This document shows, one piece after another, positions 25,245 through 35,507 of a stretch of DNA of 64,000 bases. The translations under genes and the position numbers were made by a program. The notes beneath the pieces were generated by a model. That model saw only the letters and a program-made list of their open reading frames with translations, did no database searches and was not told the DNA's origin. The first letter of the stretch is position 1, and the number at the start of each line of letters is the position of its first letter. Source of the stretch: an uncultured delta proteobacterium (GTDB lineage Bacteria; Desulfobacterota; Desulfobacteria; Desulfobacterales; B30-G6); contig CAWGLD010000005.1 in NCBI GenBank assembly GCA_963823335.1, positions 64,001-128,000 of the forward strand, read 5' to 3'.

Positions 25245-25331
25245 GCCGAAGTGGCGGAACTGGTAGACGCGCTAGGTTCAGGGTCTAGTAAGGGTTTCCT
25301 TGTGGGAGTTCAAATCTCCCCTTCGGCACCA
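25245..25331 (+). tRNA. tRNA-Leu(CAG)
   Basis: GCCGAAG acceptor pairs with CTTCGGC+ACCA; D loop GGAACTGGTAGAC; anticodon arm CTAGG-TTCAGGG-TCTAG; long variable arm; GTTCAAAT T loop. Confidence 0.97.
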
Positions 25332-25472
25332 CTTTTTTTCTTAACTTCCTGTTTTATATTAATATCCTAAGCCTAAAAATACGCCAAAAATGGCGTTTTT
25401 CCGAATAATGGGGCAAAGCCACTACACTGGTACATAATGAAACTTGTACCGGAGATAGAGAGGAGCTGGCTT

Positions 25473-25835
25473 ATGACCACACGGTCTTCCCCTTCGTACC
25501 TTTTTCAATCCCCGTATTCCTATTATTTCAGAATCCGGATCCCAGATGATTTGCGGTTGCACTTCGCTGGCAAAACTGAAATAAAACGATCACTCCAAAC
25601 CGGATATCTGTCTGATGCAAAGTATAAGGCTCGGTTGCTTGCTGGTCAAGTTCAAAGGCTGTTCAGATACTTGCACGGAAAGGAAGCTAATGCCATGACC
25701 GCAAAAAAATACTCCAAACTTACAGACGATCTGCTGAACGACATTGTGTCTATAACTTTCTTGGACGGGTTATTAGGATTTGTAACCTGTGGCATATACA
25801 CACCGCATACGGCTAAAGTTTATTGCACCGATTAA
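25473..25835 (+). pseudogene. truncated integrase N-terminus (DUF6538-like); no catalytic tyrosine-recombinase domain
   Basis: YYFRIRIPDDLR..F.GKTEIKRSLQT....A...A motif; GAGGAG RBS; resemblance appears to end near 25745. Confidence 0.75.
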
Positions 25836-26101: not shown

Positions 26102-27187
26102 ATGAGCGAAGAAATGTATCTAAAGTTAGCCAAAGTGCTTGACACCCTCCCAAACGGCTTTCCTACAACAGAATCAGGCGTTGAAATCAAATTATTGAAA
26201 AAGATATTTAGACCCGAAGATACAGAGCTTTTCTGCGACTTGAAACTTAGTTTTGAGACTGCGGAGCAGATTTCAGAGAGAACAGGAAGACCGATAGATG
26301 GCTTGGAAGATCACTTGATTGAAATGTGGCGGAGAGGGCAACTTTTTGGAGCTGATATTGGAGGAATAATGGTTTTCAAAATGGTGCCTTGGGCATTCGG
26401 AATTTATGAATTTCAACTGCCCCACCTGGACCGTGAAATGGCAGAAATGTGTGAGGAGTACATGAAAGTTTTTGGTGAACAGTTTTTCAAAAATAAGCCG
26501 CAACTCATGCAAGTCGTCCCAGTTGAGAAAGAAATTTCTGCCAAACAGCAAACTCTTCATTACGAGCAGGTTTCCAATATAATTGAAAATAGCCAGTCAT
26601 TTGCTGTTTTTGACTGCATATGTAAAAAAGAAAAACACCTATTGGACAAAGGCTGCGATAAGCCATTAGAAATTTGTACTGCATATGCTCCTATCCCAGG
26701 CGTTTTCGATGAAGTACCGCATTACCGTTCAATGTCAAAAGATGAGGCATATGCCGTCTTGGACAAAGCAGAAAAGGCCGCTTTAGTCCATCTAACATGG
26801 AATATGGAAAGTGGTCATTTTTTTATCTGTAATTGTTGTGGCTGTTGCTGCCATGTTTTGACCTCTATCAATGATTTGGGGATAAATGCTTCCGACGTAA
26901 TTAATTCAAACTATTATGCTGAAATCAACTCTGATTCATGTATCGTCTGCAATACCTGCATTGATGAACGCTGCCAGGTAGTGGCAATTGAAGAGGGAGA
27001 TGATGCGAACCATATCATCCGTGAAAAATGTATTGGGTGCGGGCTTTGTATATCAACTTGTCCGACAGAATCCATAAAGCTGATACGAAAAGATCCCGAG
27101 GAAATAATTACGCCACCAAAAGATGAGATGGAATGGTTTGAAAAACGTGCAAACCAAGTAGGAGTAGATATCAGTAAGTATACATGA
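26102..27187 (+). CDS. 4Fe-4S binding protein (wHTH-like N-terminus, C-terminal ferredoxin domain)
   Basis: AAGGAGG RBS; C.C, ICNCCGCCC, CIVCNTC...C, CIGCGLC...CP. Confidence 0.9.
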   Translation: MSEEMYLKLAKVLDTLPNGFPTTESGVEIKLLKKIFRPEDTELFCDLKLSFETAEQISERTGRPIDGLEDHLIEMWRRGQLFGADIGGIMVFKMVPWAFGIYEFQLPHLDREMAEMCEEYMKVFGEQFFKNKPQLMQVVPVEKEISAKQQTLHYEQVSNIIENSQSFAVFDCICKKEKHLLDKGCDKPLEICTAYAPIPGVFDEVPHYRSMSKDEAYAVLDKAEKAALVHLTWNMESGHFFICNCCGCCCHVLTSINDLGINASDVINSNYYAEINSDSCIVCNTCIDERCQVVAIEEGDDANHIIREKCIGCGLCISTCPTESIKLIRKDPEEIITPPKDEMEWFEKRANQVGVDISKYT

Positions 27188-27228
27188 TTAATTATCCCAT
27201 GCTTATCAGCCGTGAGAAACGGTGATGC

Positions 27229-27395
27229 CTCCAACGAAAATGTAGATATCAGGCTCCTAATATTTTACCGGTGTGCGAAAATTATCACAACAGGCCAAAT
27301 CTTGCATTCATAAGCCCTGCCGTGATACCTTGATGATGACCAGATGGTATCGTTAATAATACCATAATTCAAAAACGCACGATGTTCTCCATGTA
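27229..27395 (+). repeat. island intergenic module, copy 1 (interrupted at its 3' end by the intron)
   Basis: Shares CCAAC, GTAGATATCA, ACCGGTGTGCGAAAAT, ATCACAAC, ATCTTGCA, ATGGTATCG and CTCCAT blocks with the 29777 and 33542 copies. Confidence 0.9.
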
Positions 27396-28064
27396 GTGTG
27401 CCAAGAGCGCACTTTTAAATATAGTGTGTGCAACTGTGTAAAAGATGAGGGTTGTTTGGCCCCTCGGAGCCGGCTTGCAGGAGCAGGCTTCAAACCGCCT
27501 AAAGCTGCGTTGGTTAAGAGCCAGGGTGGTGAGCGTTTAGGAAAAGTCACGGCATAGGATCGTGGCAGGTACGACTCAGAGAGATGAGCGCAAGCGAACC
27601 ATTCGATGAAGCGTCGAAAGATCATGGACGAGGTCAAAACTGAGCTGATATATGGGGTTCAGGATGAGCTTAGGGGGAGCCTGCGTATTGCCTAAGTGGC
27701 CTCCGGCGTTAAGGTGGCATGAATCTGAGTTAGGCTTTTGCATGGAACTTGGGAACCTGTCGTCTCGATGTTAAGGGAGAAATTCAAGTGGAGATCCCAC
27801 AAGAATGAGAGTACCGATGCGAGGCACAGGGGCGGATCATCCCGTATTAGTGTTGAAGTCTCTGTAATGGGGATGGAGTGAAGGGGATGAGCCAGCTCGC
27901 AGCAAGTGAAGGTCAACCAGGAAACTGGGAGGAACCGGATTTATTTCTGCGTAGGCTTGAGACCGTGAGGTTTCAAGAGAATGGCTGGCAGGAGCGGTAT
28001 GACGGGAGACTGTCACGTACCGTTCTGAGAGGGCCTGGGGGTGAAATTCCCCCGGGCACTCGAC
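27396..28064 (+). ncRNA. ORF-less group II intron (IIB-type, resembling bacterial class D)
   Basis: 5' GTGTG; domain V GAGCGGTATGACGGGAGACTGTCACGTACCGTTC; domain VI GGCCTGGGGGTGAAATTCCCCCGGGCACTCGAC ending AC; 669 nt with no RT ORF. Confidence 0.9.
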
Positions 28065-28260
28065 TCGGTATTGTTGAAATCGTCGAACCTTGACCAATCC
28101 GCTCAAATCATGTACGTATCTTACATTGCACTCAAATCACACTTGGGCTGAATCTTCAAACTGAACCTGATCTATCCTCATTCTCGACCTGTTCTTACCT
28201 TTCAAAGATGTATCATCTTTTTTTATCAATTGCTTTATTACAGACTCAGGAGGACAGATC

Positions 28261-29742
28261 ATGACGCTTTTCAAGAGGGTTCTTCAGCTAAGTGCAATCA
28301 TGTTTCTCATCAGTGCCCTCTTTTCCTGTGGAAAGTGTTCTGTCAAATCTCCCCATGACATCGACCTTGTCCATTTCAAATCCGCTACTGAGTTGACAAG
28401 CTCCATTCGGCGCGGCGAAATCACTTCCCTTGATCTTCTCAACCTCTACCTCGACCGCATAGAGCGTTATAATAATGATATCAATGCAGTCGTTGCCCTG
28501 GATATAACTGCAGCCCGGGCGCGAGCAGCGGAAGCAGACAAAGCTCTCGTGGAGGGCAAAGACTGGGGGCCACTCCATGGCCTCCCAATGACGGTTAAGG
28601 ATGTATTTGAAGTGGTTGGCATGCCCACAACATCGGGTGACCCAATGCTCAAAGGTTACATCCCAGATCGTAATGCAATAGCGGTACAACGTCTAATCGA
28701 TGCAGGTGCAATAATATTTGGCAAAACGAACGTTCCATTCCATGCATCGGATATTCAAACTTACAACGAAATCTATGGTACGACTAATAATCCCTGGGAT
28801 TTGTCCAGAACTCCAGGCGGTTCATCAGGCGGCTCGGCCGCGGCTCTCGCTGCCGGATTTACTCCTCTCGAACTGGGGAGCGACATAGGGGGGTCAGTCC
28901 GTAATCCAGCCCACTACACAGGGGTTTTCGGACATAAACCTACTTTTGGAATTGTTCCGAGATATGGACATATACCACCAATGCCCGGCCAGGTTCCCCC
29001 ACACGTAATGCCTGCGATTCCGCTTTTCGTAGTCGGACCTCTTGCTCGTAGTGCCGATGACTTAGAATTAGCTATAGAAGTATTGACGACTCCAAATAGG
29101 ATGGACAAGAGCGCTAACAGACCAGAGCTGTTGCCACCGCGAAGGCAGCAATTCAAAGATTATCGTGTTGCTGTGTGGCTCACGGATCCCTATCCAGCAG
29201 CCGAAATCGATGATGAAGTCTTGGCAGCACTCAAGATGACCGTAGAAAAACTGCGTGGTGCCGGTCTTGACATAGACGAGGAAGCGCGGCCTAACATCGA
29301 TTTGTTAATAGACGGATCACTTTGGTATGAAATATACAGTCAGATGATGATCGGCTCATTACCGCTGGATGAGGTGCTTGTCGAAAGACAGAAAAAGCAA
29401 CAAGCAATGTGGGCTGAACTATTTGAACGTTATGATGTACTGCTCGCTCCTATATCGCCAACTGTTGCCTTTCCGCATGACCATAAGGGGACGTTAACGA
29501 CCCGCAGTTTGGAGATCAATGGCCAGCAGAAACCCATGCTAAACAACATGACTTGGGCTTATATGGCAGTTGTATCAGGATTGCCGGCAACTGTTGCACC
29601 CGTTGGGCTGAGCGAATCAGGTCTTCCAGTAGGTATTCAGATTATTGGTGCCAGATTCGAGGATAGGACAACCATAGCTTTTGCTAAAGCTTTATCTGAG
29701 CTAATTGGTGGATTCAAACCTCCACCAGGCTTTGATAATTAG
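28261..29742 (+). CDS. amidase-signature family amidase with a lipoprotein-like signal
   Basis: GPLHGLP.TVKD, GKTN, PGGSSGGSAAA, GSDIGGSVRNPA; LFSC lipobox-like; AGGAGG RBS. Confidence 0.93.
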   Translation: MTLFKRVLQLSAIMFLISALFSCGKCSVKSPHDIDLVHFKSATELTSSIRRGEITSLDLLNLYLDRIERYNNDINAVVALDITAARARAAEADKALVEGKDWGPLHGLPMTVKDVFEVVGMPTTSGDPMLKGYIPDRNAIAVQRLIDAGAIIFGKTNVPFHASDIQTYNEIYGTTNNPWDLSRTPGGSSGGSAAALAAGFTPLELGSDIGGSVRNPAHYTGVFGHKPTFGIVPRYGHIPPMPGQVPPHVMPAIPLFVVGPLARSADDLELAIEVLTTPNRMDKSANRPELLPPRRQQFKDYRVAVWLTDPYPAAEIDDEVLAALKMTVEKLRGAGLDIDEEARPNIDLLIDGSLWYEIYSQMMIGSLPLDEVLVERQKKQQAMWAELFERYDVLLAPISPTVAFPHDHKGTLTTRSLEINGQQKPMLNNMTWAYMAVVSGLPATVAPVGLSESGLPVGIQIIGARFEDRTTIAFAKALSELIGGFKPPPGFDN

Positions 29743-29776
29743 CACAAATGCACTTTTATTTAGCTAATAGATGAAA

Positions 29777-29938
29777 CCAACAAAACCGTAGATATCAGAC
29801 CCCTAAAAATTACCGGTGTGCGAAAATAATCACAACCGACCGAATCTTGCATTCATAGACCCTAGTGTGGTACCGTGGGGATGACCAAATGGTATCGGCA
29901 ATATTGTCTATAATTCCAGTTGGTAAGATACTCTCCAT
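29777..29938 (+). repeat. island intergenic module, copy 2
   Basis: Same conserved blocks as the 27229 and 33542 copies. Confidence 0.9.
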
Positions 29939-30068
29939 CAATCACCATTCTGAGATTCAGGTTTATTGCCTAATCTACAGATTAGAACTGGTTTAATTAT
30001 TACGCTCGTAATATATCCAGAACCACACAATAACTTTTCACGTGTTAAAGAATAAAGGAGGTTTCCAT

Positions 30069-33402: not shown

Positions 33403-33541
33403 GATGGGCATGATGTTATTGATAAGGGAAAAAAAGTATTTATCTGATTTTGTCCCTGACGATGGCGACCGGTCTGTTAACCATAGCCTGGGGGAAGAAA
33501 CGGATAAAAACAACAAGGAGCGGTTTCAAATAGTTGAATGA

Positions 33542-33711
33542 CTCCAACAAAACGGTAGATATCAACCCCCTAAGATTTCACCGGTGTGCGAAAATAATCA
33601 CAACTGGCCATATCTTGCACTCATAAGACCCTATGTGGTACCGTGGGCATAACCAGATGGTATCGGCAATAATTTTGATGAGGCTGATAACTGGACTTGT
33701 CTCCATGTATC
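33542..33711 (+). repeat. island intergenic module, copy 3 (intron-free target TCTCCATGTA|TC)
   Basis: Same conserved blocks as copies 1 and 2. Confidence 0.9.
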
Positions 33712-33716
33712 TGTGA

Positions 33717-33774
33717 TCCCAACCTGTCGCTGGTGGCGGACTCGGTCCCCTCGCCGCGAAGCTTGTCGTTAAAT
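33717..33774 (+). other. attC-like recombination site (58 bp)
   Basis: TCCCAAC ... GTTAAAT ends; imperfect inner palindrome GCTGGTGGCGGA / TCGCCGCGAAGC; ORF starts 17 nt later. Confidence 0.55.
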
Positions 33775-35071: not shown

Positions 35072-35431
35072 ATTTTCTTTTGACTTCATGCCCACGAAAT
35101 ATGGGATCTGAGAACCGTTGATCCAACTCATCAACGGTGAAAAGGGTTTCTGAAAACTTGTGATAGCTGCACGTGGCGTCTTTGATACTTGAGGATGTAC
35201 GGGATTATTAGGGGTAGCGCTATCATCTGGGGTTGATATTTTGTCTGAAATTTGGGATACAACAGTCCTAAGCACTAACACACATTCGGCACCTAACCAG
35301 ATGGAGTTGATTTAAATTATGCTGTGTTTACAACACATTGGAAGGGTAGGGTAGCCTCAAAATTCCGTGTCTCCCCTTCGGCACCACTTTTTTATTAACT
35401 ATCTGATCTAACTTCTAATATAAAACCTCAA

Positions 35432-35507
35432 TCCAAACCGGATATTTGTCTGATGCAAAGTATAAGGCTTGGTAACTTGCTGGTCAAGTCCAGGGGCTGT
35501 TCAGATA
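35432..35507 (+). pseudogene. second DUF6538-type integrase remnant after the att repeat
   Basis: 76 bp closely matching 25594-25669 (TCCAAACCGGATAT.TGTCTGATGCAAAGTATAAGGCT...GTTCAGATA) with an in-frame TAA. Confidence 0.8.

Follow-up and report, generated by a model that had tools for sequence, protein, structure and literature searches.

Bacterial group II introns that lack an open reading frame (ORF) nearly always share their genome with a closely related intron-encoded protein (IEP), as is stated in two papers (PMC4424553, PMC3245105); the sole exception named there is C.te.I1 of Clostridium tetani, an independent ORF-less bacterial intron (PMC4424553, Zimmerly & Semper 2015). The element treated here is a 669-nucleotide (nt) ORF-less group II intron, located in a stretch of 64,000 nt (the window; assembly GCA_963823335.1, contig CAWGLD010000005.1, positions 64,001 to 128,000) from an uncultured delta proteobacterium of the Desulfobacterales. 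Its closest precedent is TeI3 of Thermosynechococcus elongatus. As described, TeI3 is likewise an ORF-less intron of the IIB type whose copies have one ancestral deletion in common, the DIVa region is kept, and the matches between exon-binding sites (EBS) and intron-binding sites (IBS) point to retrohoming with a reverse transcriptase (RT) acting in trans (PMC2882425, Mohr, Ghanem & Lambowitz 2010). The two differ in distribution: 17 ORF-less introns and eight related RT-bearing ones are described from the one genome of T. elongatus (PMC2882425), whereas the form seen here occurs in 18 of 401 genomes of one order, and the genome of the window holds a single full-length copy, with neither a cognate RT nor a closely related RT-bearing intron found in its 93.9%-complete assembly. 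They also differ in RT class, which is CL with an endonuclease (En) domain for TeI3 (PMC2882425) and class D-like without an endonuclease domain here.

Further likenesses exist to the Sinorhizobium introns RmInt1, RmInt2 and Sr.md.I1 of bacterial class D (IIB3; PMC4615759): the RTs of the window intron's relatives have about 414-419 amino acids (aa), no DNA-binding or endonuclease (D/En) domains and a nearly intact C-terminal motif of class D. The same Rfam model, RF01999, is matched, and repeated DNA is targeted in both cases, namely insertion sequence elements there and a repeat module here. Head-to-tail copies, obtained with RmInt2 in an assay (PMC4615759), are found here in one of the genomes. 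The window copy differs from that group in having no ORF, and the relatives' RT, at 61% identity to that of an S. meliloti intron which may not be RmInt1 itself, falls short of family-level identity. C.te.I1 resembles the window intron in being ORF-less with no related IEP gene found in its genome, but that genome is complete and the intron is described as self-splicing in vitro (PMC4424553), while the present genome is 94% complete and contains two unrelated RTs. Cassette arrays and a fixed point within a repeat are also features of the IIC-attC introns as described in PMC4424553 and of IIB introns in integrons and in clusters of attC sites lacking integron integrases (CALINs), as described by Sonbol & Siam (2021, PMC7923331). 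In contrast to these, no integrase above the NCBIfam cut-off and no attC-like hairpin in the module are found here, and the intron is co-oriented with the cassettes. From the presence of EBS2 and the length of 669 nt it follows that the window intron is not of group IIC; a IIC-attC intron was also rejected for want of a consensus hairpin in the module and of a TIGR02249 match over the cut-off (zero of one genome). In the literature, searched without supplementary files, no paper was found on class D group II introns that are both non-autonomous and ORF-less.

The element is a genuine group II intron with a complete six-domain ribozyme that has lost its own RT gene. At a probability of about 0.72, it would be a non-autonomous derivative of a class D-like, IIB-type intron that homed with a trans-acting RT and is now stranded. 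Insertion would have proceeded by RNA-guided reverse splicing into the module site, followed by reverse transcription by the RT of an RT-bearing relative; a relative of this kind, which occupies the equivalent module site of a sister species (genome G353), would represent the kind of RT source. The ORF-less form would be an old lineage, in which an ORF of about 1.24 kb was replaced by a hairpin of about 50 nt while the DIVa-like hairpin with the ribosome-binding site was kept, and the ribozyme outside domain IV (DIV) would track the RT-bearing intron of the same clade through recombination between the two forms. Since no cognate RT was found and one of 33 perfect junctions is occupied, the intron has most likely become stranded and lost its mobility. 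Lying between genes and in the same orientation as these, it would need read-through transcription to be expressed, and failed splicing would cost the host little. In the following, G000 denotes the genome of the window contig, C5 that contig itself, and other G numbers genomes of the same order; a slash marks the insertion point. The ribozyme and its parts, all on the plus strand, are as follows.

27396-28064, plus strand: ORF-less group II intron ribozyme, 669 nt (Rfam, 11-copy consensus fold, no RT domain)
27447-27570, plus strand: part of domain I, RF01999 group-II-D1D4-2 (106.7 bits, E 5.3e-21, full model 1-118)
27891-27989, plus strand: domain IV remnant with the DIVa-like hairpin kept and a hairpin segment of about 50 nt replacing the ORF of about 1.24 kb (alignment, covariation)
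27992-28025, plus strand: domain V (DV), 34 nt, with AGC triad and 2-nt bulge (RF00029; compensatory pairs at columns 604-642)
28029-28061, plus strand: domain VI (DVI), with candidate branch-point A28058, 7 nt from the 3' end (minimum free energy (MFE) fold, alignment column 674)

The intron begins with GTGTG at 27396, in agreement with the GUGYG consensus, and its 3' end at 28064 reads ...CACTCGAC (or, written otherwise, ...GGGCACTCGAC). In an Rfam scan at gathering thresholds (40 for RF00029), domains V/VI were matched by RF00029 at 27990-28069 with 53.5 bits (E 1.1e-07). This alignment overruns the true intron end by 5 nt, the end being set at 28064 by comparison with empty sites and homologues. 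Excision of 27396-28064 yields TCTCCATGTA/TC, the same as is found at 33700-33711, and the joined-exon sequence recurs in an unoccupied module on contig C1 at about 96361 (TCTCCATGTATCGGTAT). The MFE of the 669 nt has a z-score of -5.43, with none of 20 shuffles equally stable, and the RNAalifold consensus of 11 copies (ten ORF-less ones from ten genomes and the truncated second copy of G000) contains 205 pairs, 51 of them with compensatory changes, including pairs in DIV, DV and DVI. The motif GGGAGGA at 27927-27933 lies on the 3' side of a hairpin in DIV with covarying pairs. No RT or maturase domain was found at 27396-28064 in whole-genome searches with RVT_1 and GIIM, both of which matched elsewhere only; the sole plus-strand frame in the intron is one of 71 aa with a GTG start (27878-28093). 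The extent of the ribozyme, its DV and DVI, the RT-less DIV with its GGGAGGA hairpin, and the boundaries with their empty site at 33700-33711 had all been proposed in the first-pass annotation, and each is borne out by these results. Some positions are peculiar to the copy. The residue at column 674 is deleted in the window copy alone and is U in nine of the ten other aligned copies; because of this loss, A28058 would not be bulged but would lie opposite a G in a 1x1 loop (MFE fold, alignment). One hairpin of domain I is longer by 4 inserted nt in the window copy and the G353 copy only, and the window copy reads CCAAGAG where other copies have CCACGAG.

The class assignment would follow from the RT of the relatives. 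The cognate RT, as represented by that of G175, has 414 aa, matches TIGR04416 with 411 bits, carries no extra C-terminal domain, and is 61% identical to the 419-aa RT of a multi-copy intron on S. meliloti pSymA, which matches RF01999, too (123 bits). The C-terminal motif of class D, given as LX3AX3PXLF[V/A]HW (PMC4615759), is present with one deviation each in LGRFARREPRLFASW (locus L065) and LGRIAKKRSYLFAHW (G353). Matches in PDB (the best being the GsI-IIC RT, E 1e-42, besides others) do not discriminate the class. Judged from RT identity, motif and shared Rfam model, the family would thus stand beside bacterial class D (IIB3, RmInt1-like).

Recognition of the target would rest on the following segments.

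27389-27395, plus strand: IBS1 CCATGTA, 7 base pairs (bp) with EBS1, one of them G-U (anchored-run test)
27649-27655, plus strand: EBS1 TATATGG, in the 11-nt loop of a domain I hairpin of 6-7 bp (columns 248-271)
27382-27388, plus strand: IBS2 ATGTTCT, six of seven positions paired with EBS2, with a central U.U
27619-27625, plus strand: EBS2 AGATCAT, in the segment after the conserved TCGAAA (covariation in homologues)

The EBS1 and EBS2 loops are complementary to the last 14 nt of the repeat module. Pairing was tested on 23 copies with an intact 5' end, taken from the 401 genomes of the order, against 2000 shuffles. Anchored at exon position -1, the EBS1 run extends over 7 bp in 13 of the 23 copies, 6 bp in three, 5 bp in two and at most 3 bp in five; the pairing sum of 130 compares with a shuffled mean of 75.9 (sd 6.8) and is reached by none of the shuffles. 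For the EBS2-exon helix the shuffles average 104.7 (sd 4.5), and 24 of the 2000 reach the sum of 116 that the cognate pairs give. Since related copies share exons, the 23 rows are not independent; at least nine distinct IBS1 sequences were counted among them by reading. The EBS1/IBS1 covariants include UAGAUGG/CCAUCUA in G353, UAGAUUG/CAAUCUG in G240, UAUUAUG/CAUAGUA in G383, UUGGAG/CUCCAA in G028, UAGCAG/CUGCUA in G175, UCAGAC/GUCUGA in G010, UAUCUGU/GCAGAUA in G326 and G011, and AGUCGUU/GAUGACU in G155. By its position in the domain I fold and by this covariation, the assignment of TATATGG as EBS1, with seven pairs to CCATGTA including one G-U, is upheld.

The target itself is a member of a repeat family. 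With a profile built from BLAST copies (nhmmer, E<=1e-3), 88 matches to the module were obtained in the 4.37-Mb genome G000, forming co-oriented arrays on contigs C1, C4, C5, C7 and C9 with a spacing of about 0.7-4 kb within arrays. Those around the intron are listed below.

27193-27395, plus strand: module copy 1, which is the 5' exon (nhmmer C5:91193-91395, profile positions 13-216, 167.8 bits), ending exactly at the insertion point
28065-28089, plus strand: start of the 3' exon, TCGGTATTG..., the right-hand extension of the module, a flank type shared with other modules and with two truncated introns
29768-29955, plus strand: module copy 2, unoccupied, with the site CCATCAA/TC (nhmmer C5:93768-93955)
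33515-33722, plus strand: module copy 3, whose empty target at 33700-33711 reads TCTCCATGTA/TC (nhmmer C5:97515-97722)

Among 56 long copies, conservation of the module reaches TCTCCATnTA/TC and then falls, the downstream flanks being of a few types or unique; hence the intron sits at the boundary between the conserved and the variable part. The earlier proposal that the intron targets a repeated non-coding module agrees with the 88 matches and with relatives inserted at the same kind of site, and the reading CCATCAA in copy 2 is confirmed from the sequence. That other copies might reside in unrelated targets, a concern of the first-pass annotation, does not hold for close relatives; distant relatives have other targets, with matching EBS1. 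When applied to loci from other genomes, the module profile hidden Markov model (HMM) finds matches in the same-genus G353 only, so that the module would be a sequence family of genus level at this sensitivity.

At its left end the module carries a hairpin, GATATCT-N13-AGATATC, and about a quarter of the copies are extended on the right by a stretch approximating the inverse of the left end (TGATATTTGGTTTTCAGACAAGATATC). Genes or fragments of tyrosine recombinases lie beside several arrays (C7:240.6-241.1 kb, C1:163.9-164.5 kb, C1:1516.4 kb and C4:151.8-152.1 kb). The arrays, with cassettes of 1-4 kb, may represent a non-integron cassette system. Several identities of the module were tried and rejected. 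A canonical attC site of an integron was discarded, as the best TIGR02249 match in G000 is 88.5 bits against a cut-off of 265, no R''/R' cores were recognized by eye, and an RNAalifold consensus hairpin is absent on both strands of the 56 copies. As a structured RNA it has no consensus fold, the Rfam matches in the window being the intron and one tRNA only. A small gene is not convincing either: a 42-codon consensus frame on the minus strand, with its ATG at the TCTCCAT edge, shows codon-position entropies of 0.68/0.64/0.76, and many of the 56 copies have an in-frame stop before the consensus stop.

A second target site lies at the left end of the module. In a DNA contig of run X3 the 3' end of an intron is joined, at a point equivalent to window position 27242, to CAAAACG and GTAGATATC..., and the 5' exons of L052, L054 and a 5' fragment on C7 (G000:C7:204816) end in (T)CTCCAA or CTTCCAA. 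The EBS1 of L052, UUGGAG, fits this left-end target; L054, with UAUAUUG, is at a mismatched site.

In the whole of G000, the joined-exon junction CTCCATGTATC (11 nt) is found unoccupied 32 times, 22 of these inside module matches, and occupied once. Other intron sequences in the genome are incomplete.

C5:11013-11555: truncated intron copy, positions 128-669, 88% identity, with a 3' flank of the common right-hand module type
C4:502337-502378: intron remnant, the last approximately 42 nt with a 3' flank like that in the window
C4:183566-183646: internal piece of the intron, 81 nt
C7:204658-204816, minus strand: first 162 nt of the intron, after ...GCTTCCAA, at a non-module site

The two longest copies of G000 are thus only 88% identical. 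No RT of the family was detected in this assembly. A whole-genome profile search gave three GIIM loci and two RVT_1 loci, none of them cognate: a 491-aa frame on C1 belongs to an element without Rfam ribozyme match, a 440-aa frame on C7 lies within a full intron of another type (RF02005, 70 bits; DV, 38 bits), and the third GIIM locus is a 166-aa remnant on C5. With three cognate RTs as queries, tblastn returned the C7 and C1 genes only, at 32-37% identity, and in an order-wide protein search no cognate RT was found for G000 at E<=1e-60, its assembly being 93.9% complete in 11 contigs. The maturase in trans that had been suggested at first is therefore not represented in this assembly by a cognate protein, the two intact RT ORFs present being 32-37% identical to the cognate family. 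Across the 12 genomes with near-full ORF-less copies, an intact frame of the cognate family occurs in three (G244, 80%; G228, 62%; G196, 57-58% identity), fragments only in another three (G191, G200, G353), and no match in six (G000, G003, G240, G085, G383, G028; completeness 92-97%); because the genomes are drafts, absence of the cognate RT is not proven.

From these data an intron that is still active, either self-splicing like C.te.I1 or served by the non-cognate C7/C1 RTs or by an unassembled cognate RT, is considered somewhat unlikely. Among copies of 80-92% identity, conservation accompanied by compensatory changes extends to DV, DVI, the DIVa-like hairpin and the EBS loops; the six of 12 genomes without a cognate RT match might mean that the form does not need one; relaxed "driver" IEPs are described in PMC2882425; and RNA contigs of the intron family are present in two RNA runs, a weak indication, as they derive from other organisms and the flanks are uncovered in one. 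Against activity stand the 32 perfect junctions that are empty versus one occupied, the divergence (88%) or truncation of the copies within the genome, the distance of the resident RTs (32-37%) and their association with other ribozyme types (RF02005 or no Rfam match), and the missing U beside the branch-point A.

It is quite unlikely that the copy was carried to its place within a duplicated segment made up of module end, intron and 3' flank, in which case its position would be uninformative on targeting in G000. The remnant at C4:502337-502378, with its last approximately 42 intron nt and a 3' flank similar to window 28065-28180, fits such a duplication. The complementarity of EBS1 and EBS2 to this very 5' exon is, however, what retrohoming predicts, independent relatives elsewhere occupy equivalent sites with matching EBS1 variants, and a duplication would merely shift the question back by one copy.

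The history of the lost ORF can be read from the two forms of the intron in the order. Matches at E<=1e-5 were obtained in 77 of the 401 genomes, G000 included. RT-bearing copies match intron positions 1-494 (or 1-541/554), and positions 595-662 are matched after about 1.3 kb where the fetched locus was long enough (L062, L063, L065); in the RT-bearing copies of G353 and G191 the 3' end was located by eye. The cognate ORF begins right after GGGAGGAGCC and stops beside DV. ORF-less copies, defined by a contiguous match over positions 494-586 or further, with rows read by eye, occur in 18 genomes (G000, G191, G200, G003, G240, G311, G085, G383, G028, G244, G353, G228, G189, G196, G107, G356, G389 and G351). 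In all 11 aligned ORF-less copies, which are 80-92% identical, the same segment of about 50 nt with a covarying hairpin takes the place of the ORF, and it has no counterpart in the RT-bearing partners in two ORF-less/RT-bearing pairs. As the DIV remnant can be aligned in 11 of 11, all copies would descend from a single ancestral ORF deletion. In a maximum likelihood (ML) tree built for 25 copies from their 5' 494 nt, on the other hand, ORF-less and RT-bearing copies are interleaved, with at least four label changes forced by well-supported branches: the window copy groups with the RT-bearing copy of G353 (support 100/98), the ORF-less copy of G028 with the RT-bearing one of G328, from the same family (99/99), and G244 with G175, again from the same family, with weak support (91/56). 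A DIV remnant of single origin in ribozymes that otherwise follow the local RT-bearing intron would imply exchange; in the probably simplest reading, the two forms have undergone recombination or gene conversion inside host lineages.

The RT-bearing copy of G353 is 94% identical over positions 1-494, follows the 5' exon ...GATGTTCTCCATCTA and has EBS1 UAGAUGG; on the 3' side of the G191 copy the sequence reads TCGGTACTTGGATGATATTT... Both these RT-bearing relatives occupy the same module junction. The 5' flanks of the ORF-less copies in G191 and G200 are repeats there, with 11 and six matches, respectively, the query's own place included. The RT frames of the closest RT-bearing relatives are broken (181 + 246 aa in G353, L072, G353:C15:342300-345700; 216 + 202 aa in G191, L073, G191:C14), which suggests that driver introns are decaying there too. 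In G196 (L059:1105-2814, minus strand) three ORF-less copies stand head to tail without spacer (...CTACCCGAC/GTGCGCC..., the slash here marking the joint), the third being truncated. In a search for an orthologous empty site in sister species, the amidase cassette that follows the intron in the window was not found in nine congeners, G311 having a 70% paralogue only.

Loss of the ORF in place, from a G353-like RT-bearing intron at this module site, is very unlikely: although the 5' 494 nt are closest to that copy (94%, shared 4-nt insertion, clade support 100/98) and the 5' exons are near-identical (...CGATGTTCTCCAT[G/C]TA), the DIV remnant with its hairpin of about 50 nt is alignable in nine other genomes from at least seven families, the G353-type DIV sequence differs from position 495 onward, no deletion breakpoints inside a G353-type ORF sequence are seen, the flanking genes differ (a pilin-like ORF is downstream in G353, and the amidase cassette was not found in the nine congeners), and, as a simple deletion would not recreate the common segment, recombination with an ORF-less copy fits better.

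Several points weigh against the favoured explanation, a trans-homed and now stranded derivative. Multi-copy RT-bearing introns are often lost from assemblies such as this 93.9%-complete one in 11 contigs, and for this reason the absence of a cognate RT is not proven. A well-kept ribozyme would equally fit ongoing function. The U next to the branch-point A is missing and a U.U mismatch is present in EBS2/IBS2, so that past homing at this exact site would not have been onto a perfect target. The remnant at C4:502337 and the window copy have about 100 nt of 3' flank in common, so that, instead of inserting independently, intron and flank may have been duplicated together as one segment. Transcription, splicing and occupancy at this locus, finally, lie outside the coverage of the public runs. 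Each of these holds at most 42% of the sampled words of 27200-28260; four runs were placed at 90% likeness, and all their contigs derive from relatives, containing intron and module pieces, with no contig across either exon-intron junction of this locus or with the ligated exons. One 180-nt metatranscriptome contig (random-primed, run X15) has the intron 3' end ...TACTCGAC and an extra T joined to the first base of the intron (window positions 27396 and 28057). The two DNA runs placed do not show this 3'-to-5' joint, which might stem either from an intron circle or from a copy arranged in tandem in the DNA of a relative.

Other elements meet the module as well. The second RT element of the genome, with its 491-aa frame containing RVT_1 and GIIM (L015:1686-3123 and L036, G000:C1:96378-98440) and no Rfam ribozyme match, begins 7-12 nt past the same module junction in three module copies (...CCATGTATCGGTATTGCGACACGAAGTCGCG); 5' pieces of it are found at G000:C9:19329-19586 and, on the minus strand, at G000:C1:147762-147662. 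Its long copy meets a module-type right flank just past the ORF and thus appears to be without its 3' end. The maturase-domain remnant at L037:1427-1987 (G000:C5:9300-9860), a 166-aa frame with 72 bits to GIIM, is followed by a DV/DVI-like hairpin pair (by eye) and ends exactly at the left edge of a module (...CTACTCGAT/ATGTCCAACGAAAAC, the slash marking that edge). Rfam matches to DV or D1-D4 at E<=0.01 were obtained neither for the C1 element (L036) nor for the remnant at C5:9.3-9.9 kb (L037).

A more far-reaching idea, that the cassette arrays were partly built by introns, through recombination between copies or through reverse splicing into foreign transcripts and later loss of the intron, is regarded as doubtful. 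By either route the constant module, always as 5' exon, would be joined to new downstream genes. In dozens of copies, no more than about 2-4 nt separate the end of the constant module from the point where the intron inserts, and module edges are also abutted by the second RT-encoding element, the maturase-domain remnant and the left-edge intron variant. If true, array building would carry over to a IIB/class D lineage, and to a repeat outside integrons, what has been proposed for IIC-attC introns and integron cassettes. In a milder reading, the ORF-less lineage may persist across the order without its own RT by self-splicing or by borrowing unrelated RTs.

The surroundings of the intron are given by the following features, besides a gene for an Fe-S protein upstream, which ends at 27187.

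28090-28118, plus strand: promoter-like motif TTGACC-N17-TACGTA, downstream of the intron, read by eye
28261-29742, plus strand: amidase gene, the next downstream ORF (Pfam PF01425, E 3.9e-100)

Between the end of the intron and the ATG of the amidase gene at 28261 there are 196 nt. A motif TTGACC-N17-TA(T/C)nnA is conserved 25-90 nt downstream of many module copies and may be the cassettes' own promoter; a consensus promoter scan gave no plus-strand promoter in 28065-28260, the TTGACC motif included. The placement of the intron in the leader of the amidase transcript, as proposed in the first-pass annotation, is accordingly supported neither way, with a promoter-like motif downstream of the intron that the scan did not call. 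For its transcription the intron may rely on read-through out of the gene for the Fe-S protein. Further upstream, a tRNA (25245-25328) is followed by a 132-aa frame (25437-25835) that combines the N-terminal domain of an integrase (DUF6538) with a Bor-like tail, and an 80-nt direct repeat of 90% identity (25590-25669 and 35428-35507) brackets the cassette region at 25.6-35.5 kb; together, tRNA, integrase frame and direct repeat look like the boundary of an island.

Summarizing, the window intron belongs to a kind of element that is known, though rare; for the window alone it would be an ordinary, probably stranded copy of a mobile element with little effect on its neighbours. Of wider note are the occurrence of one ORF-less form in 18 of the 401 genomes of the order, with no cognate RT match in half of the 12 genomes that hold near-full copies, and the way in which the ORF-less ribozyme follows the RT-bearing intron of its own host clade. 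Should closed genomes bear this out, the family would offer a natural system for the persistence of non-autonomous introns and for their recombination with drivers, and its well-defined EBS1/EBS2 code could serve in retargeting tests.

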